From assembly GCA_964536485.1 (NCBI GenBank), contig CAZHXX010000001.1:21643-85642 (forward strand): a stretch of 64,000 bases of DNA, read 5' to 3'. Of the stretch, positions 1-24,155 are shown one piece after another. The translations under genes and the position numbers were made by a program. The DNA comes from an uncultured Candidatus Saccharibacteria bacterium. Its GTDB lineage: Bacteria > Patescibacteriota > Saccharimonadia > Saccharimonadales > SZUA-47. The notes under the pieces are model-generated. The model was not told the origin of the DNA. It searched no databases and saw only the letters and a program-made list of their open reading frames with translations. How positions within the stretch are numbered: the stretch's first letter is position 1; every line of letters begins with the position of its first letter.

Positions 1-515
1 GCTCCTTCTGGGCTAGAGTTGGCGATGATAGGCGTTGTTACTTCGGTAAAATCAAGCGATTCCATAAAGGTACGGATGCGTGAGTACATTTCGGCACGCT
101 TTTTGAGCATCATCTGCATTTTTGGGCGTCGCAAATCAAGATAGCGGTATTTTAAGCGGTTATCTTCACTGATGTTTTGGGTAGAGTTTACCTGAATCGG
201 CAACGGCTCCGACTTGTTCAAGAGTTTAATTGACTCGACAAGAAGCTCTACCTTGCCGGTAGGTATGTTAGGATTCTGCAAGTCAGTTGCACGTTCTGCT
301 ACCTTGCCTGTGGCCTGAATAACATATTCGTCGCGAAGCTCTTCTGCGATAGCAAACGCCTCGGAGCCTGTTGCAACAGTAAGTTGTACTACCCCTTTAT
401 AATCGCGTAAATCAATAAATATAAGTCCACCATGGTCACGACGTGAATGCACCCAGCCAGCAACAGTTACTGTTTCGCCAACACACTCGGTCACGTCTAA
501 AGAAAAAGTTCTCAT
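1..515 (-). CDS. aspS: aspartyl-tRNA synthetase, N-terminal part (gene runs off the window start)
   Basis: Not in the ORF track because it is open at the edge. Minus-strand translation from the ATG at 515-513 gives MRTFSLDVTECVGETVTVAGWVHSRRDHGGLIFIDLRDYKGVVQL...RLKYRYLDLRRPKMQ, which are typical AspRS N-domain and motif strings. An AAGAGGA Shine-Dalgarno (SD) sequence lies 8 nt upstream. Confidence 0.9.
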   Translation of the reverse strand, partial: MRTFSLDVTECVGETVTVAGWVHSRRDHGGLIFIDLRDYKGVVQLTVATGSEAFAIAEELRDEYVIQATGKVAERATDLQNPNIPTGKVELLVESIKLLNKSEPLPIQVNSTQNISEDNRLKYRYLDLRRPKMQMMLKKRAEMYSRIRTFMESLDFTEVTTPIIANSSPEG

Positions 516-554
516 TTTTTGTATCCTCTTATTCGTTAGGTTGTTTTGGCTGGG

Positions 555-651
555 TTCGGTCCAAAGCACAAAGCTAGCCCGCTTCCGGCTAGCGTGCGGA
601 CCGTTGATTATTATCAGAAAAACCAAAACTTTTCATTCGCATAGTATATCA
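555..651 (-). promoter_or_regulatory. candidate aspS leader: TGaTATACT -10 box, leaderless 15-codon mini-ORF (636..589, MKSFGFSDNNQRSAR) and an intrinsic terminator hairpin (593..573)
   Basis: On the minus strand, TGATATACT (651-643) is followed by 6 nt and then ATG (636-634). The mini-ORF stop codon TAG (591-589) lies inside the 5' arm of the hairpin GCTAGCC/GGCTAGC, which is followed by TTTGTGCTTT. I see no other -10 box between the hairpin and the aspS start. Confidence 0.35.
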
Positions 652-1692
652 CTTTTTCTCTGTTTTAACAGCTTTTTGACGCTTTGCCCGTTCTTTGTCA
701 GCAATGCTTGTTGCTACCGCGCGCAAATCATCATATGCGTCAAACTCGTCAACGATCTCTTTGCCAATAATCTCTTCCAAAACATCTTCTATGCTCAGCA
801 CGCCGACAAATTCTTCAAAATTATTTACTACCACAAATAAATGGTGATGGGTTTTAAGAAAGGCACGCAGTGCTTGGTCTAGCGACTCTTCTTCATGCAT
901 ATAGCGCACATCTTTACTCATGATATCGGTTACTTTTTTTAAAGTCTTTTGTCCCACGAGGTCTCGTAGGTACAGTGTCCCAACAAATTCCATATGCGTA
1001 CTATCAACCGTAACGGGGAACCGTGAATGCCCAGAACGGTGAAGTTCGTCCATGAGCAAAGGCCCTACCTCATCTCCTTGCGCGACCAGACGAACCATTC
1101 GTCTTGGTGTCATAATATCGCGTATCTTTTTGTCACCAAACCCAAGTGTCCCTTGCAGCATCAAGAGTTCGTCATTCGATACGTCACTGTCTTTTTTATG
1201 CAACGTGTTCTGAAAGAGCGCAACGAGTTGTTCTTTGGTATAGACTGCATTGTCTTGGCTCTGCATGACTTGCTCAATTTTATGAGCAATTGGCCGTAGT
1301 ACGGGTGAGCAAAAGCCGACAATTTTGCGCAGAAGTGGTGCCGAAAGCGCAATAAAAGCTAGCGCGAAATTTCTTAAAAACAACAGTGACAAAAGCTCGC
1401 ACACAAGAAGAATAAGACTCCCAAAAAGAATAGCAAAAAGTGCATCAGTCCAGCCACTTAGGAGAATAACTAGCCATGCATTACACACAAGAACAATTGC
1501 GCTCATGACGATATACAGCTCATAGCGCAACACATGCAATGGGTACACGGCTTTTGCCCGCTTATCCCCTGCCTGCGCTTTACGCTTGAGCTGGTAATGG
1601 TTCATCCCGAGCAATCCACCCTGAATAGTAAGAGCACCGGTAGACATCAAAATAAGCGCGGTAAAGAGAAGATACGAAAATAATGTATTCAC
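649..1692 (-). CDS. CNNM/DUF21 transmembrane domain plus CBS-pair protein (HlyC/CorC-type transporter, no C-terminal CorC_HlyC domain)
   Basis: 347-aa ORF with N-terminal TM helices followed by tandem CBS-like segments (IRDIMTPRRMV...VTDIMSKDVRYM...LSIEDVLEEIIGKEIVDEFD). The GTG start is uncertain. Confidence 0.8.
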   Translation of the reverse strand: MNTLFSYLLFTALILMSTGALTIQGGLLGMNHYQLKRKAQAGDKRAKAVYPLHVLRYELYIVMSAIVLVCNAWLVILLSGWTDALFAILFGSLILLVCELLSLLFLRNFALAFIALSAPLLRKIVGFCSPVLRPIAHKIEQVMQSQDNAVYTKEQLVALFQNTLHKKDSDVSNDELLMLQGTLGFGDKKIRDIMTPRRMVRLVAQGDEVGPLLMDELHRSGHSRFPVTVDSTHMEFVGTLYLRDLVGQKTLKKVTDIMSKDVRYMHEEESLDQALRAFLKTHHHLFVVVNNFEEFVGVLSIEDVLEEIIGKEIVDEFDAYDDLRAVATSIADKERAKRQKAVKTEKK

Positions 1693-1768: not shown

Positions 1769-2485
1769 ATGAAACAAGTAATTATTGCCGTTCTAGCCGT
1801 TGTGGCAATTATTGGAGGCGCTGTTGTCCTTGGTAAGGATGAACAAGCAACCGGTCAAGGATCTAACTATGTATATGGGAAAGCAGACTCAACAGTCACG
1901 CTCGTCGAATATGGGGATTTTGAATGCCCTGCGTGTAAGTTCTTCTACCCTGTAGTTGCACAGGTAAAAGAGAAGTACAAAGATAAAATTGCCTTCCAGT
2001 ACAAGCACTTCCCACTCGTACAAGTACACCGTAACGCACTTGCTGCGCACCGAGCAGCCGAAGCGGCCGGAAAACAGGGCAAATTCTTCGAAATGTATGA
2101 CCTTTTGTATACCAACCAAGAAGATTGGAACGGACCATCACAAAGCGATCCAGTTGGCATCCAGACAGATAGTGCCATCCGTATTTTTGAAACCTATGCC
2201 GAGAAGCTGGGGCTAGACATGGCAAAATACAACACCGACTTAAAAGATGCCTCAACTTCAGCAACCATAAACGCAGACACCGCAGAAGGCAAAGATAAGT
2301 ACGCTATAACCGGTACTCCAACCTTCGTCTTAAACGGCAAAAAAATCGAAGACACCTCAACAATGGACACCGTCGAGGAGCTCTCCGCTCTCATCGATAA
2401 AGCACTGGGAGAAACAACTCAAACTACTCCTACGGCAACAGAAGCACAACCTGGTAGCTCAACTGAACAGACCACCGCACAATAA
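1769..2485 (+). CDS. DsbA-family thiol:disulfide oxidoreductase, membrane-anchored/secreted
   Basis: N-terminal TM segment and a thioredoxin CxxC site (GDFECPACKFFYP). AAAGGAG SD upstream. Low-complexity T/Q-rich C-terminal tail. Confidence 0.8.
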   Translation: MKQVIIAVLAVVAIIGGAVVLGKDEQATGQGSNYVYGKADSTVTLVEYGDFECPACKFFYPVVAQVKEKYKDKIAFQYKHFPLVQVHRNALAAHRAAEAAGKQGKFFEMYDLLYTNQEDWNGPSQSDPVGIQTDSAIRIFETYAEKLGLDMAKYNTDLKDASTSATINADTAEGKDKYAITGTPTFVLNGKKIEDTSTMDTVEELSALIDKALGETTQTTPTATEAQPGSSTEQTTAQ

Positions 2486-2505
2486 GAAGCGCATAAACAT
2501 CTACA

Positions 2506-2543
2506 AGCCGGCTACCTTAAGAAAGTAGTCGGCTTTTTCTTTA
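2506..2543 (+). terminator. intrinsic terminator after the DsbA-like gene
   Basis: 10-bp stem AGCCGGCTAC/GTAGTCGGCT (one G-U pair), 9-nt loop, followed by TTTTTCTTT. Confidence 0.6.
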
Positions 2544-2866
2544 TCGCACCAAAATAACATCTCTACACTAGTAAAGAATAAATGATTGCCACTGAGGCCT
2601 TAACACCGTCACTTCTATTCGTTCTTGAACAGAGGGCGCAATTGTCACGTTGACTGACATACAATATATCAGTCCTTTCTCTCGCATTTACTTTTTTTGA
2701 ATGTCTCGTTTTTATCTTTCCGTAAAGCTCATCTTCTCGCAAAGATGCTCTCAACTTACAGAAGTAATTTTATAATAGCATACCTGTTACACATTCCGTC
2801 AAGAGGCTTGTGTTTATTCTGCTTCTTCGCTACACTTAAAAATAATTACACAAAAAAACAAAAACT

Positions 2867-5151: not shown

Positions 5152-5339
5152 TACAGTGCCATACCTTCGCAACATTTCGTCTTATAATGACATTGCGGGC
5201 ATTCATAGTGTCCATGTACAGGAAGCAAAGGATAAAACCCGCACAACTCACAAAAATACTCTATAGAGCACTGAGATAAATCAGAGCTATTCCTGTTTTC
5301 AGGCTGCTTTTGCAGTGAATTGTTTTCGTTTGTTACCAT
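5151..5339 (-). CDS. small Cys4 zinc-ribbon protein
   Basis: 62 aa with CELCG...(18 aa)...CPQCH. It overlaps the 3' end of the 520-aa gene by 41 nt and is stop/start-coupled to nadD. Confidence 0.45.
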   Translation of the reverse strand: MVTNENNSLQKQPENRNSSDLSQCSIEYFCELCGFYPLLPVHGHYECPQCHYKTKCCEGMAL

Positions 5340-6861
5340 GATTGTTCTCTACAAGTGTAGCAAGTTTCTTTTTCCATAGTGGTGCTGGTTTTGGTTTTTC
5401 TTCTTTTGGTGCGCACACCATGCCCTTACAACTAGAAACTTGGCACTTCTCTAATAATTCCCCTCTTTTTCTCTCGTTTCTGTGCCCTTCCGTGCAGTGA
5501 AAAACTAGGGCCCCAAAGCTGTCTTCTGCCGTATCTTCAGCATCAACATTTTCTCTAAGCTTCCCGCCAAAGATATCTTGCAATCCAAAAAGTTCATCGG
5601 TACTTTTTACTTCGCCGTTCACATCACGCGAGTGCAATGAGCTCCCGCTACACCCACCATATGATCGCTTTGCTTCTGTTCCCGCTCGTACATTTTGTAC
5701 CATCTGTCTTATTAGATCCTTTTGTTGCTGCAAAACAGCTCCATAGACAAATGTAGCCATTTGCTCTCGTCTCAAAGAAATTGGTGTAGTAAGCAATTCT
5801 GTAGAATTCGTTTCTTTATACATGTATGTTGGGAGTTCTTTTCTTAGCTCTTCAACGAGGGCGTAGGTAATCATTTCATCCATAAGACGAGCATCAGCAT
5901 CCTCAAAACTCGTTCTTTTACTAATTTGCATTAGTTGCACTCGTTTAGCCCAGTCAATAGAATCAACATGGGCAAGTGCGCGCGCTAATTCTTGCAATCT
6001 CTTGTCATTTGTTTTGGTATGAGTTGCTTCTGCAAGCTTCGGAACATATGTAGCAAAATACTTTTGCACCGTTGCATCTTGTCGTGCCAGGAAGTCAGTG
6101 ACTGAATACTCCTTACGTGCATCACCGATAAACTCTCGATGATACTTTTTAAGTTGATGCCCAAGTTGCTTAGCATCATTAATTGAACCAGCCTTTCGCA
6201 TGTGTAGAGTAAGCCACTGCTCATCTTTTACATCTTTTGGGACCAGATATCCAAGTTTCGCAAAAGCTTTTCGCATCGCTTGTGTGTCACTACGTTTTAT
6301 ACAAATCACTCCAGCTTTTAGTTCAGTTTCACTTACGCGGTAGTACCACTGCCAAATAGCCATACCTTCACGGTAATTCATGTGGTTTTCCCAAAAATCC
6401 TTGTCATCTTTAATTGCGTCTTTTGGATCCATACTGAGAGCCCCAATCATCTCACCGACTTCCAATTGGTCTACTGCTAATGCTAATAGTGTATCGTTCT
6501 TATCTCTCTCAGCTTGTATCGCCATTCTAGGGTCTGATTCTATTGCCTTGATAGAGCGCGTCTCGCCGTTTCTCACCATGTCTATCACTTGTTCCCCATG
6601 CTCTGTCACTGCATGCCCGTCAACTATCTCTAGAGTTCTCGAATTATCAAAGATGAGCTGTTCGCCATATTCCGGGTCAGTTGCAAGATGTTCCTCAAGT
6701 CGGGTGTAAAAATCATTCCATACACGTGTTAAATACCCGTTAGGTTCTTGTAAAAGCTCTGGCAGAGACCGCTCGACCGCAACACTCCCAAGCATACGGA
6801 CAGCAGAGAGCGAATGCCCATACTGCTCTCTTTCAAGTAACTGCTCAGCGCTGACTTGCAT
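5299..6861 (-). CDS. uncharacterised 520-aa protein with a C-terminal Cys/His cluster
   Basis: Long ORF with coding character. C-terminal FHCTEGH...(14 aa)...CQVSSCKGMVC. I recognise no family. Confidence 0.7.
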   Translation of the reverse strand: MQVSAEQLLEREQYGHSLSAVRMLGSVAVERSLPELLQEPNGYLTRVWNDFYTRLEEHLATDPEYGEQLIFDNSRTLEIVDGHAVTEHGEQVIDMVRNGETRSIKAIESDPRMAIQAERDKNDTLLALAVDQLEVGEMIGALSMDPKDAIKDDKDFWENHMNYREGMAIWQWYYRVSETELKAGVICIKRSDTQAMRKAFAKLGYLVPKDVKDEQWLTLHMRKAGSINDAKQLGHQLKKYHREFIGDARKEYSVTDFLARQDATVQKYFATYVPKLAEATHTKTNDKRLQELARALAHVDSIDWAKRVQLMQISKRTSFEDADARLMDEMITYALVEELRKELPTYMYKETNSTELLTTPISLRREQMATFVYGAVLQQQKDLIRQMVQNVRAGTEAKRSYGGCSGSSLHSRDVNGEVKSTDELFGLQDIFGGKLRENVDAEDTAEDSFGALVFHCTEGHRNERKRGELLEKCQVSSCKGMVCAPKEEKPKPAPLWKKKLATLVENNHGNKRKQFTAKAA

Positions 6862-12954: not shown

Positions 12955-13029
12955 TCCCGAGTAGCTCAATGGTGGAGCAAAAAGCTGTTAACTTTGAGGT
13001 TGCCAGTTCGAGTCTGGCCTCGGGAGCCA
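12955..13029 (+). tRNA. tRNA-Asn: tRNA-Asn (anticodon GTT), CCA encoded
   Basis: Cloverleaf read by eye: acceptor TCCCGAG/CTCGGGA, D arm GCTC..GAGC, anticodon stem AAAAG/CTTTG with loop CTGTTAA, T arm GCCAG-TTCGAGT-CTGGC, discriminator G, then CCA. Confidence 0.9.
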
Positions 13030-19275: not shown

Positions 19276-19740
19276 CTATTTAGCAGCTTCCTGCAATTCT
19301 TTTATGTTAATCTTTTTCATTTGCATCATCGCCTGTATGGCTTCTGGCCCACTTAACAACTCTGGCATGTTTTCTGGAATAATTTGCCAGCTTAAACCAA
19401 ACTTATCTTTACACCAACCACATTGTTCGCTTTCAGGAACTGCCGAAAGCTTTTCCCAATAAAAGTCGATTTCTTCTTGATCTTTGCAAGAGACAAACAT
19501 AGAAATAGATTCATTAAACGCATACATAGGGCCCCCGTCGAGACACATGAATTGTTGCCCGTCGAGTTCGAACACGCCGGTGATCACCTTCCCACTCATA
19601 CCTTCAAAATGTTCATCGAGTGATTCATCTGGATACATATTGACGCTTAAAATTTTTGAATTGGCAAACACTTCTGTGTAGTAGTCCATTGCCTCTTTTG
19701 CATTATTGTTAAACCATAAAAATGGTGTTATTTTTGCCAT
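19276..19740 (-). CDS. PhnB/YjdN-like VOC (glyoxalase-fold) protein
   Basis: MAKITPFLWFNNNAKEAMDYYTEVF... is the typical start of the '3-demethylubiquinone-9 3-methyltransferase domain' family. Confidence 0.75.
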   Translation of the reverse strand: MAKITPFLWFNNNAKEAMDYYTEVFANSKILSVNMYPDESLDEHFEGMSGKVITGVFELDGQQFMCLDGGPMYAFNESISMFVSCKDQEEIDFYWEKLSAVPESEQCGWCKDKFGLSWQIIPENMPELLSGPEAIQAMMQMKKINIKELQEAAK

Positions 19741-19741
19741 A

Positions 19742-20176
19742 TTATTTCCCTTCTACTAATTCTGCCAAGAAGTCGTAGTGCTGGTTCCAGCCCTTTCGCT
19801 GTAATTCTTTGTCGTGTACCTGTTCTACATCGAACTCAACCCGCAAGTGTGTCATGCCATCTTTTTCTGAGAGGTCATACGTCACAAGACGGTTATCTGC
19901 ATTTATAATTTCTTCAACTTGTAGGTAATACGCCAAGCGAGTTGGCTCATTCATCTCTGAAATTATTGCACCAAACTCAAAGGTTTGGCTACCGTCAGCG
20001 CTCGAATAGCCAATTTTTATTCTGCCGCCAACTTTTGCGTCAACCTCTGCATAAGGGGTCTTCCAGCCATCGCCAGCATGATGCCACTGTACTAAATCTT
20101 CTGGTGAAATAAGCGCTTTGAACACCCGCTCTATCTGCGCGCGCAAGTCTCGCTCGATAACTATTGAATCTCTCAT
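19742..20176 (-). CDS. SRPBCC / AHSA1-domain protein
   Basis: About 145 aa. IERVFKALISPEDLVQWHH... is an Aha1-like pattern. Confidence 0.7.
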   Translation of the reverse strand: MRDSIVIERDLRAQIERVFKALISPEDLVQWHHAGDGWKTPYAEVDAKVGGRIKIGYSSADGSQTFEFGAIISEMNEPTRLAYYLQVEEIINADNRLVTYDLSEKDGMTHLRVEFDVEQVHDKELQRKGWNQHYDFLAELVEGK

Positions 20177-20199
20177 TATTTCTTTGCCTTTCCTTAATT

Positions 20200-20640
20200 T
20201 TATACACTCAGCATGGCTTCAAGTTTTGCAAAACACTGCGACCAACCGCCATTGTGCCCTTCCATTATTCCCTTATTTGCAAAACCAGTCTGCGTATATA
20301 CCATGTGTGTTTTACCGTCTCGCTCACTTAGCTCAACTGTGTAAGTAGTGGTGTCTTCACTGCCGTCGTCGTTTATCCATGTATGGGTAGACACAATCTT
20401 AGTTGGCTCAATAAGTTCGAGATACTTACCTTTAATACTCCCGTTATACCCTGGTGTGCTCGACTCCATCGTCATGTGCCATTCACCCCCTACTTTTAGC
20501 ACTCCGCCAATTTTGGTAACTTCAAATGTATCTGGGCATGACCATTTTTGAAGCATTTCTGGGTCGGTCCAGGCTTGCCACACCTTCTGTATTGGTGCGT
20601 CGAAGTCTCTTTCAATAGTTAGTGTCAGTTCTTCGTTCAT
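20200..20640 (-). CDS. SRPBCC / AHSA1-domain protein (paralogue)
   Basis: FDAPIQKVWQAWTDPEMLQKW... has the same fold pattern as the neighbouring gene. Confidence 0.7.
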   Translation of the reverse strand: MNEELTLTIERDFDAPIQKVWQAWTDPEMLQKWSCPDTFEVTKIGGVLKVGGEWHMTMESSTPGYNGSIKGKYLELIEPTKIVSTHTWINDDGSEDTTTYTVELSERDGKTHMVYTQTGFANKGIMEGHNGGWSQCFAKLEAMLSV

Positions 20641-20651
20641 TACTTTTTCTT

Positions 20652-21308
20652 TCAGATTAAGTTTGTAAAGCGTTTTGAAGTACTTTCCTCGTCCATGGAC
20701 TTTAAAATAAACGGTGCAGAGCCCGCTTGCGCGAAAGTCATTTCTTGTACCTCAATTATAGGAAGCCAGACGTGTTCGTATTCCTTATTTGACTTTAATA
20801 CTTCAGATTTTAGCGTTGCAGAATAGACGTCGATAATCCCATGAAACTGTGTCTCTTTTACGATTGTCTCTACACTAAACAAAAATTCATCCGCTAAAAG
20901 CCCGCGAGATTTGGCAACAGACTGCGCACTACTCCGACTTGATGATAGGAAAAAATGGTTTCCTCCTGGAAGCATGAATTCGTTTAAATTTTTACTCAGA
21001 GCGGTAGTTCGTCGTGATAGCAACACCTTCCCGTCTTGTATTACCAGAAACTGTACGAGAAGATTGGGCTGGCGCAATGGCTCACGCATGCGATAACGAC
21101 TATTGTAGTGCTGGGCACCAACGAGTGTTAGCTCATAAAACTGATCATCTTTCGTGACAAACCCCTCTTTGATCAGCTTCTTCATATGATACATAAACAA
21201 GCTATGCTCAAGACCTTCCGGAACTAACTCAGAGAAACGTTTTTTACCATCGACAAGTGAAGCAATAATTTTGTCTTGCAAATGATGGTCGGTAAATGGC
21301 ATCGTCAT
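20652..21308 (-). CDS. wHTH regulator fused to a degenerate Nudix-like domain
   Basis: The N-terminus is ArsR/MarR-like (KRFSELVPEGLEHSLFMYHMKKLIKEGFV). The C-terminus has Nudix-fold strands (FLVIQDGKVLLSRRT...LPGGNHF...EHVWLP), but the Nudix box lacks the catalytic Glu residues. Confidence 0.55.
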   Translation of the reverse strand: MTMPFTDHHLQDKIIASLVDGKKRFSELVPEGLEHSLFMYHMKKLIKEGFVTKDDQFYELTLVGAQHYNSRYRMREPLRQPNLLVQFLVIQDGKVLLSRRTTALSKNLNEFMLPGGNHFFLSSSRSSAQSVAKSRGLLADEFLFSVETIVKETQFHGIIDVYSATLKSEVLKSNKEYEHVWLPIIEVQEMTFAQAGSAPFILKSMDEESTSKRFTNLI

Positions 21309-21321
21309 ACGCCGTAGTATA
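21309..21321 (-). promoter_or_regulatory. -10 box TATACT placed 7 nt before ATG 21308
   Basis: On the minus strand: gctatact-acggcgt-ATG. Confidence 0.45.
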
Positions 21322-21410
21322 GCGCAAAAAACTACTGTTCGCTTGTAGGTAAAAAAGCTTTTACTAGTTTTTTATTTTGACGAACACTATGCTGATGATA
21401 GTAGCGCGGC

Positions 21411-21592
21411 TGAAGTACACAAACACACCTAAGTGTTGTGCCAAGTAAGCGGTTACCTATTACCTTCGACAGGTACCATTACCTCGGATGTAACATGTGC
21501 TGTCTGGAGCTTTATGGTCTGCAGATATGAGGTTTTGACAGGTAGTCAAAACTTACACCTCCCCAAAGGGCTCACTCACAGACAGCACAAAC
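21411..21592 (+). ncRNA. candidate structured RNA upstream of SPFH-rtcB (boundaries approximate)
   Basis: Contains a T-loop-like hairpin TACC-TTCGACA-GGTA (21461-21475), a hairpin TTTTGAC-AGGTA-GTCAAAA (21533-21551), and an 11-bp long-range helix (21496-21506 with 21579-21589) extended by GAGC/GCTC. TACCT and AGGTA pentamers are repeated. See findings. Confidence 0.3.
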
Positions 21593-21632
21593 CTAGAATT
21601 GAATCTAAGAATAATTTATAAAAGGAGACAAC

Positions 21633-22271
21633 ATGTTAACTAAAACAACCATCTACGAAACCCAGCGAGGGCTCATGGTTATGAACGGAAAAATTGTAAG
21701 GGAGTTGGGGCCTGGCGTTTATCGAACGTTTAAGCGCTCTTCCCGAGAATTTTTCATCTATCCTAAGACCGCCCAGGCATACGTTGTGCCAAACAACTGT
21801 AGGTCAAAGGACAGCGCCAGCTTTATCGTAGACGTACCGACGATGATATCTATCGTAGACATACGTACCTACTTCTTAAGTAGTGTCACTTACTATCAGG
21901 AAGTAGCTCGGGTATGCACAAAACATATCCAGGAAATAACCGGAACCTTAACTCTTGCTGAGATTCTAGCAGAACCATTAAAACTAGACGGAGCAACGCT
22001 TAACGAAGAGCTTGCCAAGTGTGGGCTTGCGATAACAATTGAAGGTCCTATTGAAACGCGTCTTCCAAGAAACCTCCAGAATGCGATAGATGCACAGGAA
22101 GTTGCGCGCCAGAAGGCAAAGGCAGAAATAGAAGAAGCGCGCGGGCGGACCGCAGTGTTGCGCCACTATGCAAATGCCGCCAAACTAACAAAAGATAATC
22201 CGGACGTCCTTCGTTTGTTGCTTGGCCAAAAGGCAAAGTCTATAAACGTCGCGTTTGATGCAAGGAACTAA
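21633..22271 (+). CDS. SPFH/Band-7 (slipin-like) domain protein
   Basis: RGLMVMNGKIVRELGPGVY...CRSKDSASFIVDVPTMISIVD...LAITIEGPIETRLPRNLQNAIDAQEVARQKAKAEIEEARG is the SPFH core followed by a coiled coil. AAGGAG SD upstream. Confidence 0.75.
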   Translation: MLTKTTIYETQRGLMVMNGKIVRELGPGVYRTFKRSSREFFIYPKTAQAYVVPNNCRSKDSASFIVDVPTMISIVDIRTYFLSSVTYYQEVARVCTKHIQEITGTLTLAEILAEPLKLDGATLNEELAKCGLAITIEGPIETRLPRNLQNAIDAQEVARQKAKAEIEEARGRTAVLRHYANAAKLTKDNPDVLRLLLGQKAKSINVAFDARN

Positions 22272-22274
22272 TCT

Positions 22275-23447
22275 ATGGAAATAATAACCAAAAAACTCTA
22301 TAACTGGGCTTCAATAATTGATGAGAACACGAGAGAACAGGCAGAAAGAACCGCCAGCATGCCGTTTGTCTTGCCTCATCTAGCACTTATGCCAGATGCC
22401 CACATGGGCGCAGGCGCTACGGTAGGCTCTGTCATCCCGACAATTGGTGCCATAATGCCAGCAGCCGTGGGCGTAGACATTGGATGTGGGATGATTGCCG
22501 TAAAAACACAGTTTAGCGCTACAGATATTGCAAACAAGGACCTGAAGAAATTACGACACGCTATAGAGCGCTCAATACCTTTGTCTGCCGGACGCTTTAA
22601 TTCTCGGCTGACTGATTCTGTAAAGCCACGTGTCGAAGAACTAAGTGAAATGGCTGGCGAACGAAAAGCTTTCTACGACAAGCTTACCCGTGCACACTGG
22701 TCCTTGCAGCTTGGCACTCTTGGCTCTGGGAACCACTTTATTGAGGTAACAGTCGACGAAAATGACAGCATTTGGCTGTTTTTGCATAGCGGGAGTCGCG
22801 GGATTGGGAATGCTATTGCGATGTACCACATAAAAATAGCTCAGGAATATGCTAAGAAACACTATATTGCACTTGCGGACACTGACCTTGCATATCTTGT
22901 TGAAGGTACAGCTGAATTTGATGCATATATAACAGATCTTCAGTGGGCGCAGCACTTTGCCCTGCTTAACCGTGAAGAAATGATGGATAGAGTGGTAAAA
23001 GATTTTGAGCACTTTATGGAAGCTGAGGTTGAGGAGCAAGAACGCATTAACTGCCACCACAACTTTACTCAAAGAGAGCACCACATGGGACGTGATGTAT
23101 GGCTAAGTCGTAAAGGAGCAATACAGGCAAACAAAGGACAAAAAGGCCTTATCCCTGGTTCTATGGGAACCGCGAGCTATGTTGTTGAGGGCAAAGGATT
23201 CGCTCCTGCATACAACTCGGCACCACACGGTGCTGGAAGAGTGTGGGCACGGCGTGCCGCTTCTCGACACTTCACTATTGAGGACATGGACAAGGCAATG
23301 AAAGGGATAGAATACAACCGTTCCGAGAAATTCTTAGACGAGATACCCGCTGCCTATAAGGACATTGACGTTGTCATGGATGATGCAAAAGACTTAGTCG
23401 AAATACTTCATACCTTCCACCAAATTGTGAACGTAAAGGGAGAGTAA
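22275..23447 (+). CDS. rtcB: RtcB RNA 3'-phosphate/5'-OH ligase
   Basis: MPDAHMGAG, GSGNHF, HSGSRG, PGSMGT, CHHN and APHGAGR motifs. Starts 3 nt after the SPFH stop codon. Confidence 0.92.
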   Translation: MEIITKKLYNWASIIDENTREQAERTASMPFVLPHLALMPDAHMGAGATVGSVIPTIGAIMPAAVGVDIGCGMIAVKTQFSATDIANKDLKKLRHAIERSIPLSAGRFNSRLTDSVKPRVEELSEMAGERKAFYDKLTRAHWSLQLGTLGSGNHFIEVTVDENDSIWLFLHSGSRGIGNAIAMYHIKIAQEYAKKHYIALADTDLAYLVEGTAEFDAYITDLQWAQHFALLNREEMMDRVVKDFEHFMEAEVEEQERINCHHNFTQREHHMGRDVWLSRKGAIQANKGQKGLIPGSMGTASYVVEGKGFAPAYNSAPHGAGRVWARRAASRHFTIEDMDKAMKGIEYNRSEKFLDEIPAAYKDIDVVMDDAKDLVEILHTFHQIVNVKGE

Positions 23448-23507: not shown

Positions 23508-24155
23508 ATGGCTTATACCACAATTTTGTTTGATGTAGACGGAACGCTGTGCGACCCAGGCGAGTCAATGTTAGAGTGCGCTCGTTACGCGCTGAGTAAA
23601 TGTGGTGTTACCGAAACAGACAACTCCCGTCTTCAACGACTTATCGGCCCACCGCTCGAACATGCTTTTATGGACTATTACGGCTTTTCTGAATCGCTAG
23701 CTGTTGAGGCAACTGGCTACTTTCGCGACATGATGAAGCGTGACGGAATAGCCCTCTACAAGGCATACCCTGGCATAGCCGAGTTACTCGATGAACTGCA
23801 AAAGTCCGGCAAACAACTTGCCGTTGTGACATCAAAGCTCAACACAATCGCAAACGAGACGCTAGCTAAAACGAATCTTCTTAATTACTTTGTGTTTATA
23901 AGCGCTCAACAACCCGAAGTGGTCGTAAAGAAAGAGGCAATTCTCAGGGATGCCCTCACCCACTTACACACAACCGACATGTCTCATGCGGTAATGATAG
24001 GAGACAGAAAGCACGATGTTGAAGCTGCTAAAGCACTCGGGATTGATTCTATTGGCGTACTGTGGGGGTACGGCGATAAAGCAGAACTACAGGATGAAGG
24101 TGCGACACATATAGTCGCAACAATGGATGAATTACGAAAGCTTGTTTTAGGCTAA
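23508..24155 (+). CDS. HAD-superfamily phosphatase (phosphoglycolate-phosphatase-like)
   Basis: FDVDGTL motif I, VVTSK motif II, GDRKHD motif IV. Confidence 0.8.
   Translation: MAYTTILFDVDGTLCDPGESMLECARYALSKCGVTETDNSRLQRLIGPPLEHAFMDYYGFSESLAVEATGYFRDMMKRDGIALYKAYPGIAELLDELQKSGKQLAVVTSKLNTIANETLAKTNLLNYFVFISAQQPEVVVKKEAILRDALTHLHTTDMSHAVMIGDRKHDVEAAKALGIDSIGVLWGYGDKAELQDEGATHIVATMDELRKLVLG

Follow-up and report, generated by a model that had tools for sequence, protein, structure and literature searches.

A 324-bp intergenic gap (21309-21632) in a 64,000-nucleotide (nt) stretch of an uncultured Candidatus Saccharibacteria genome (contig CAZHXX010000001.1; the whole stretch is called the window here) encodes a structured RNA of ~190 nt at 21397-21593 on the + strand, and this RNA exists as a conserved structure that strictly co-occurs with an SPFH/Band-7 gene. 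The gap separates a divergent gene of 218 amino acids (aa; start 21308, minus strand) from the SPFH start codon at 21633, and the gene following SPFH encodes the RNA ligase RtcB. An initial annotation of the window had delimited the same gap and proposed that it held a candidate structured RNA with a T-loop, associated with the SPFH-ligase pair; its gap coordinates are correct, and all of the sequence features that it listed are present where it placed them. From left to right, the locus contains:

20652-21308, minus strand: divergent regulator of 218 aa, with an N-terminal winged helix and a C-terminal Nudix fold (Pfam, AlphaFold2, Foldseek)
21349-21364, no strand assigned: palindromic operator GTAAAAAAGCTTTTAC (consensus GTAAAAA-NN-TTTTTAC), the only match in the 64-kb window
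21388-21393, + strand: -10-like box TATGCT (consensus CTATNCT), conserved in alignments
21397-21593, + strand: structured RNA, the whole covariance-model match (103 bits, expectation value (E) 1.6e-26, full length)
21633-22271, + strand: SPFH/Band-7 protein of 212 aa (Pfam Band_7, E 3e-16)
22275-23447, + strand: RtcB RNA ligase of 390 aa (Pfam PF01139, E 2e-116 over residues 22-389, a full-length match)

Folding gave z-scores of -4.3 for 21400-21592 and -3.6 for 21400-21632, and none of 200 dinucleotide-preserving shuffles was equally stable. The G+C content (GC) of the RNA is 47%, compared with 43% for the 64-kb window and 25-35% for the remainder of the gap, and the RNA is above the locus average in 17 of the 17 loci described below. 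G-U pairs are frequent in the helices listed, and the + strand orientation therefore fits.

Conservation and structure of the RNA

Seventeen distinct SPFH loci, encoding proteins with 31-100% identity to the SPFH of the window, were gathered from a genome collection, exact-protein look-ups, and one DNA-pattern scan; the SPFH relatives derive from Saccharibacteria/Saccharimonadales genomes and metagenomes. The RNA lies upstream of SPFH in all 17 loci examined, on the same strand and 17-45 nt before the start codon. These upstream regions can be aligned over ~250 nt, and the sequence further upstream and that of the flanking gap cannot. A MAFFT alignment of 15 sequences, which was not fitted to structure, showed compensatory changes in 19 of the 26 RNAalifold consensus pairs. 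A covariance model of 183 positions and 35 pairs then gave one match per locus, always just before SPFH and on its strand; elsewhere in 220 kb, it matched only one contig (L007), and that partially. In the model alignment of the 17 distinct sequences, compensatory changes (i.e., changes on both sides of a pair) were found in 28 of the 35 pairs, standard pairs occupied 88.7% of cells, a share that fell to 29-43% once the 3' partners were shifted by 1-3 columns, and 500 shuffles never attained any of the observed covariation measures. Two loci outside the training set were also recovered: L015, whose SPFH is 39% identical, at 33 bits (E 2.5e-7), and L017, whose SPFH is 31% identical, at 14.6 bits with filters off (E 8e-5 for 651 nt). 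The alignment was searched for additional covarying stacks and pseudoknots, and none were found beyond the modelled helices, only uninformative pairings among invariant bases.

Conserved structure together with compensatory changes is the general hallmark of a structured non-coding RNA, and the element has both. Sequence and structure are conserved upstream of related SPFH genes and paired bases change in a compensatory manner; covariation supports the structured RNA that the initial annotation placed on the + strand, and the related loci support the assignment of that RNA to the SPFH-ligase pair. Covariation also bears on the simplest alternative, namely that no functional RNA exists and that the gap is either a long promoter with inverted repeats arisen by accident or the site of an open reading frame (ORF) of 62 aa (21433-21621). 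A lone 11-bp inverted repeat could indeed be fortuitous, a caveat already entered in the initial annotation, which also listed the ORF and judged it implausible. However, 28 compensatory pairs across 17 sequences speak against both; furthermore, indels are not multiples of three, gene callers place short ORFs on the opposite strand in the relatives, and the RNA can be aligned where the flanking gap sequence cannot. The covariation is strong enough that chance repeats and a small ORF are effectively refuted, and we assign them a negligible probability.

The RNA folds into a 5' domain, a small hairpin, and a 3' domain, with the following parts, all on the + strand:

21401-21456: 5' domain, consisting of P1, an invariant internal loop, and P2 (helix survey, covariation)
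21401-21411 with 21448-21456: P1 outer helix, in 17 of 17 family members with differing sequences
21409-21418, GCUGAAGUAC, and 21440-21450, GCCAAGUAAGC: invariant internal loop, with ~20 nt invariant in 16 sequences
21418-21426 with 21433-21440: P2 hairpin CACAAACAC/GTGTTGTG, whose pairs covary
21461-21475: P3 hairpin UACC-UUCGACA-GGUA (21461-21464 with 21472-21475), with 3 of 3 modelled pairs compensatory and 96% of cells paired
21496-21589: 3' domain, a long arm with P4, its extension, a core, and a variable tip
21496-21506 with 21579-21589: P4 helix, 11 of 11 pairs covarying, extended by GAGC/GCTC
21507-21517 with 21563-21573: P4 extension
21515-21524: long-arm core UGGUCUGCAG, opposite CUCCCC (21559-21564), kept even in the distant L015 and L017
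21528-21557: long-arm tip, variable in length and sequence

Within the invariant loop, AGUA lies opposite GAA and is flanked by GCU/AGC, which is the sequence signature of a loop-E/sarcin-ricin module; the loop may thus adopt that fold, although covariation cannot confirm the assignment because the loop bases never vary. The P3 loop is almost always 7 nt long, with a U-rich 5' side and A as its last base, and the stem of 3-5 bp is closed by C-G, not G-C. The core follows the pattern GG, a 3-nt YYU bulge, G, C, AG (21516-21524) opposite CU-C-C-CC (21559-21564). The consensus structure has no four-way junction, and no terminal stem is formed from the 5' and 3' ends. RNAs of the clade with a kinase-ligase (L001 at about 2850-2870, L002-L005, L021, and L022) have an extra GC-rich hairpin between P1 and P3, with anticodon-loop-like loops of 6-8 nt (CUGAAAA, CUGAACC, UUGUUAA); this hairpin is absent from the clade of the window.

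P1 was not among the helices of the initial annotation, but two others listed there are family features: its hairpin at 21418-21440 is P2, conserved and covarying, and its 11-bp helix with the GAGC/GCTC extension is P4, in which every pair covaries. The hairpin TACC-TTCGACA-GGTA at 21461-21475 is likewise conserved (P3), but the T-loop read into it does not characterise the family: the strict UUCRA loop occurs only in the window and L010, and with UUUGA in L003 and L004 the total is 4 of 16 distinct sequences. Other elements proved to be local. The repeats of TACCT (21454, 21461, 21480) and AGGTA (21471, 21540) and the octamer GACAGGTA at 21468 and 21537 are all present but confined to the window and, partly, L010, and the suggested loop-loop pairing of AGGUA with UACCU is not conserved beyond these two. 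TTTTGAC/GTCAAAA (21533-21539 and 21545-21551) is also real but falls in the variable tip of the long arm, and the proposed GAGGT/ACCTC pairing (21529-21533 with 21557-21561) is not conserved and competes with the family-wide pairs G21521-C21561, A21523-U21560, and G21524-C21559. The repeated UACCU (21454-21484) of the window and L010 permits a fold that competes with P3 and is preferred by the minimum-free-energy fold; in the window, AGGUA (21537-21544 region) also forms the tip loop. The competing fold is not kept in the next relatives.

With the window gap and 10 relatives as queries, Rfam 15 yielded no family overlapping the RNA at gathering or permissive thresholds; the sole gathering-level match, and the sole tRNA, in the 64-kb window is a tRNA-Asn (GUU) at 12955-13029 (Rfam span 12955-13026). 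ARAGORN predicted no tRNA gene in the gaps of the window and 17 related loci, the Rfam tRNA model gave no match with an E limit of 10 for the window gap and of 5 for the 10 relatives, and the YrlA model (RF02553) had none in this gap or those of the 10 relatives. The tRNA-like identity that the initial annotation had raised, without being able to verify it, is thus not supported. No blastn match to the RNA was found in the plasmid and phage collections, and neither the RNA pattern nor an SPFH relative was found in viral contigs. An exact-pattern scan of metagenome contigs with the invariant loop gave three matches, of which two adjoin SPFH genes. The third, at L007 1347-1401, comprises the P1/P2 invariant motif alone, antisense within an RNase Y gene (KH and HD domains) on a short metagenome contig; since the remainder of the RNA is absent there, the 22-base pattern was probably matched by chance.

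SPFH, the ligases, and the regulator

The SPFH protein has an AlphaFold2 model with a predicted local distance difference test (pLDDT) score of 86, in which the SPFH domain is followed by a 43-residue helix, the domain-plus-long-helix arrangement of the family. The top Foldseek matches of the model (stomatin, prohibitin, HflK/C, QmcA, erlin, flotillin, and major vault protein) are all ring or cage formers. The N-terminal membrane anchor that stomatin, HflK/C, and flotillin typically have was not found in the protein: the first beta strand starts at residue 2, and there is no hydrophobic segment. SPFH is thus taken to be soluble, and because its fold resembles that of cage formers, it probably forms a ring or cage. 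The Arg/Lys-rich C-terminal helix is the most conserved stretch, and tblastn of the window SPFH against phages gave no match.

By their ligase, the cassettes fall into three types:

With RtcB: the window, L010, L012, L013, L024
With a fused AAA_33 kinase, metallophosphatase, and RNA_lig_T4_1 (Rnl1-type) ligase: L001-L005, L018, L021, L022, L023
Without an adjacent ligase: L020, L015, L017

The ligase is interchangeable, and the conserved pair is the RNA and SPFH. Since this pair persists where the ligase has been swapped or lost, including the last three loci, in which neither ligase nor regulator adjoins it, the RNA is tied to SPFH and not to the ligase. RtcB and the kinase-phosphatase-Rnl1-type fusion are two unrelated ways of sealing breaks with 2',3'-cyclic-phosphate and 5'-OH ends, and their occurrence in the same cassette indicates that one ligase has displaced the other within it. 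No TROVE (Ro60) domain was found among the neighbouring genes of the window and related loci. Several cassettes are neighboured by NUDIX or HAD genes; a HAD hydrolase gene follows RtcB in the window (23508-24155, + strand), and another HAD gene lies near the SPFH of L017. Downstream of the regulator gene, at 19276-20640 on the minus strand of the window, are two AHSA1/SRPBCC-type genes and one of the 3-dmu-9_3-mt family. The Saccharibacteria contig of L013 also has a SAM (S-adenosylmethionine) riboswitch (5289-5410; RF00162, 50.8 bits) before an S-adenosylmethionine synthetase gene.

Regulators of the different loci are 51-79% identical. The winged-helix match of the window protein is weak, but 12 of 12 orthologues match the winged-helix families DUF7347 and HTH_45. 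The AlphaFold2 model, predicted with database homologues (pLDDT 84), has a winged helix followed by a Nudix fold; Foldseek against PDB matched it to Nudix hydrolases at E ~1e-7, with 395 matches at <=1e-3, and a profile search against PDB sequences reached Nudix at E 0.11. The catalytic Nudix box (GX5EX7REUXEEXGU) is absent: the corresponding motif, LPGGNHFFLSSSRSSAQSVAKSRG, has no Glu and none of the GX5E or REUXEE residues. The Nudix domain is therefore probably a ligand-binding sensor of the nucleotide type, like that of NrtR-type regulators, and not an enzyme.

In every locus with the regulator gene, one palindrome precedes the RNA at a constant distance, and L015, L017, and L020, the three loci without that gene, have none; operator and regulator are thus linked. 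The -10-like box lies 22-23 nt after the operator and ~7 nt before the first paired base of P1; from its conservation and this placement, it appears to be a -10 element with a transcription start at ~21400. The box was missed by a sigma-70 consensus promoter scan, and a canonical -35 was not found. Such a start would put the palindrome centre near -43, a position suited either to an activator that replaces a poor -35 or to a repressor that covers it. The palindrome is also 40 nt from the regulator start codon, making autoregulation likely. L002 has a further copy of the operator (831-846), flanked by the regulator gene (141-806, minus strand) on one side and by a gene for a CCA-adding-type enzyme with PolyA_pol and HD domains (865-1920) on the other; divergently from the RNA, this locus encodes the nucleotidyltransferase RlaP (1923-2693, minus strand). 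The regulator may therefore control a small RNA-end-repair regulon.

The RNA slot upstream of Band-7 and its interpretation

A Band-7-associated tRNA-like RNA, b7a-tRNA, was predicted by Burroughs and Aravind in 2016. A preprint citing that work (bioRxiv 10.1101/312249) describes it as an unvalidated prediction with a strong resemblance to real tRNA and with its gene beside those of Band-7 and RtcB, and has YrlA occasionally adjoining Band-7 in its place. The literature link between RtcB, SPFH, and a tRNA-like RNA that the initial annotation had drawn is therefore genuine, and real loci of the type are present in Burkholderia and Photobacterium. When 72,556 plasmid records were searched by tblastn with the window SPFH, only two replicons matched, from Burkholderia multivorans (L030) and Photobacterium sp. 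(L031), both via Band-7 proteins (424-459 aa). In each locus, a divergent RtcR comes first; then follow a sigma-54-like box, identified by eye, a tRNA-like gene or two, Band-7, and RtcB. Pfam confirms RtcB in Photobacterium only; in Burkholderia, its place is taken by an ORF of 407 aa without a Pfam match. The b7a-tRNAs of both loci were detected by ARAGORN and, at 44-54 bits, by the Rfam tRNA model, and they served as positive controls. Just 5' of the Burkholderia b7a-tRNA, at L030 3190-3236, there is a tRNA-minihelix-like GC-rich stem with a GGTTCGACTCC T-arm and a CCACC end.

A third version of the regulator-RNA-Band-7 gene order is found in a Flavobacteriaceae locus (L006, 874-5497), which has a divergent WYL+WCX regulator, a YrlA-like/tRNA-like RNA (2178-2278; 42.7 bits with the YrlA model, short of the gathering threshold of Rfam), Band-7, and two RlaP genes. 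From end to end, the window SPFH is colinear with Band-7 of the b7a-tRNA loci (26% identity) and with that of the YrlA-like locus (22%), and the C-terminal motif is common to all. Because homologous Band-7 genes in Burkholderia, Photobacterium, and Flavobacteriaceae are each preceded by an RNA, an RNA gene directly 5' of Band-7 is a rule; the slot in Saccharibacteria holds an RNA of different size and fold, unseen by the tRNA and YrlA models in 11 loci.

The best reading of the Saccharibacteria RNA, by analogy, is that it is the functional counterpart of the b7a RNA and the YrlA/Y RNA found next to Band-7 or Ro60 elsewhere. We give an even chance to the proposal that SPFH has this ~190-nt non-coding RNA as its dedicated partner and that the two serve an inducible module for RNA repair; beyond the conserved pairing itself, we infer that SPFH binds the RNA and oligomerises and that the module acts in repair. 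The regulator would bind the palindrome, whose centre is ~43 nt upstream of the putative start, and control a transcript that begins with the RNA and runs into SPFH and the ligase gene. The RNA would fold into its 5' arm with the invariant internal loop, the small hairpin with a 7-nt loop, and the long 3' arm with a bulged core and, processed or unprocessed, would join a soluble SPFH ring or cage. This particle might then assist or direct the resident ligase (RtcB or the kinase-phosphatase-Rnl1-type enzyme) in sealing broken RNAs, most likely tRNAs. The covarying structure, the RNA-SPFH linkage, the repair enzymes, the match to the b7a-tRNA slot, and the cage-type fold of SPFH, which has no anchor and is most conserved in its Arg/Lys-rich C-terminal helix, all support the proposal. 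Several points count against it. All of the loci belong to a single lineage (Saccharibacteria and relatives), many of them on metagenome contigs; alignment with the covariance model is biased towards the modelled structure; no 3' end signal or processing site is visible; and the RNA lies in the 5' untranslated region, a position equally compatible with a cis-acting leader. The b7a-tRNA idea is itself an unvalidated prediction according to the preprint (bioRxiv 10.1101/312249).

A cis-acting 5' leader would be bound by SPFH, the ligase, or a small molecule and would feed back on translation or stability of the SPFH-ligase mRNA, with no trans-acting species made. We consider this possible though rather doubtful. 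It is in keeping with a leader that the RNA always lies between the promoter and the SPFH start, on the same strand and without a terminator of its own (no terminator-like site was found within 21100-21800), that it stays with SPFH where the ligase is absent, and that its strongly conserved unpaired nucleotides are also typical of protein-binding leaders. Yet an expression platform of the riboswitch or attenuation kind is missing: there is no terminator/antiterminator pair, no conserved pairing between the RNA and the ribosome-binding site was seen across related loci, and the linker of 17-45 nt to the start codon varies in length and sequence and is unpaired in folds of 15 sequences. Nor does any Rfam riboswitch or leader family match, and the equivalent position in other phyla is taken by tRNA-like and Y-RNA-like genes, not switches.

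Two further explanations appear improbable to us, to the same degree. In one, the RNA is a decoy or sensor substrate, whose hairpins mimic the targets of RNA-cutting toxins, for example 7-nt loops of the anticodon type or a loop resembling loop-E/sarcin-ricin, and whose cleavage and resealing would report or absorb damage. The conserved 7-nt loop of P3, mostly with U as its second base and with A as its last, could be taken for such a target, as could the second hairpin of the kinase-ligase clade, with loops such as CUGAAAA and UUGUUAA, and the invariant loop with its AGUA opposite GAA; the alternative ligase is moreover of the type of T4 Rnl1, whose classic substrate is tRNA cut within its anticodon loop. 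However, loop sequences differ between relatives, often with a pyrimidine at position 37, the clade of the window lacks the extra hairpin, and the RNA cannot easily be the first sensor because it is made from the promoter of the repair genes. In the other, the RNA is a highly diverged but true b7a-tRNA or YrlA homologue, tRNA-like in three dimensions though invisible to sequence tools. Its genomic slot and homologous Band-7 partner would be explained, and the UUCGACA loop of the window P3 fits the T-loop pattern; but that pattern is kept in only 4 of 16 sequences, with a C-G closing pair, the consensus contains no four-way junction, and the window and 10 relatives give no match either with ARAGORN or with the tRNA and YrlA models (E limits of 5-10), although the same tools do detect the proteobacterial RNAs.

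A Band-7-associated RNA in RNA-repair loci is of a kind already predicted. What appears to be undescribed is the RNA family with its fold, the regulator that joins a winged helix to a Nudix fold, its operator, and the minimal soluble SPFH: full-text literature searches returned nothing relevant, and Rfam has no such family. A 2026 paper places an SPFH gene inside a Pseudomonas rtc locus and mentions no RNA. The role of Band-7/SPFH in bacterial RNA-repair loci, and that of the accompanying RNA, has to our knowledge gone untested since the prediction of 2016. The present results add a strongly supported RNA family that Rfam lacks. They also mean that the RNA partner need not be tRNA-like, since in a deeply branching lineage with small genomes a different, well-defined fold fills the slot, and they offer a compact experimental system: a soluble SPFH of 212 aa, an RNA of ~190 nt, one ligase, and one regulator with a defined operator.

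Comparison with known systems

NrtR-type regulators resemble that of the window in joining a degenerate Nudix fold to a winged-helix DNA-binding domain and in recognising a palindromic operator (the binding is predicted here), but the order of the domains is reversed in the window protein, with the winged helix first, and there is no significant sequence match to NrtR. RtcR-regulated rtcBA operons likewise have a divergent regulator with a nucleotide-binding sensor domain (nucleotide binding is predicted for the window) that controls an RtcB operon; the sensor there is a CARF domain on a sigma-54 activator, whereas in the window it is an inactive Nudix fold on a winged-helix protein, RtcA is lacking, and the RNA and SPFH gene precede the ligase.

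The closest parallel in gene order is b7a-tRNA. It too is found immediately 5' of a Band-7/SPFH gene and in the same orientation, is accompanied by a homologous and colinear SPFH protein, follows the promoter of a divergent ligand-sensing regulator (sensing being predicted here), and precedes an RNA ligase. The two differ in that b7a-tRNA is a cloverleaf of 65-72 nt, while the Saccharibacteria RNA is ~190 nt long with three arms and has no cloverleaf and no G-C-closed 5-bp T-arm with UUCRANN; in that RtcR, a sigma-54 activator, takes the place of the winged-helix and Nudix-fold regulator; and in the ~200-aa N-terminal extension of the Band-7 proteins, which the window SPFH does not have. YrlA/Y RNA and Ro60 (Rsr), in rsr-yrlBA-rtcBA operons, also combine a structured RNA with a co-transcribed ring-shaped or oligomeric scaffold protein and RtcB (co-transcription and an oligomer are predicted here), and the RNA is proposed to serve as a cofactor, tethering an RNA enzyme or making it more specialised. 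In the window, by contrast, there is no Ro60/TROVE gene nearby and no match to the YrlA model, and the RNA has neither a terminal 5'-3' stem nor a tRNA-like domain.

The vault particle is eukaryotic, and its sequences are unrelated to those considered here; vault RNA is bound via TEP1, a TROVE protein, and not via an SPFH-like domain. The likeness lies in a soluble cage that is built from a protein with an SPFH-type shoulder domain and is accompanied by a small structured RNA; for the window, the cage is a prediction from the fold. It is conceivable, though on balance unlikely, that Saccharibacteria form a vault-like soluble SPFH ring or cage that carries a non-tRNA RNA of ~190 nt and recruits either of two unrelated ligases to toxin-cut RNAs. 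If such a particle existed, it would represent a new RNA-binding mode for the SPFH family, and the pairing of SPFH with RNA would be an ancient general principle, with b7a-tRNA, the YrlA-like RNA, and the Saccharibacteria RNA as interchangeable cargo.

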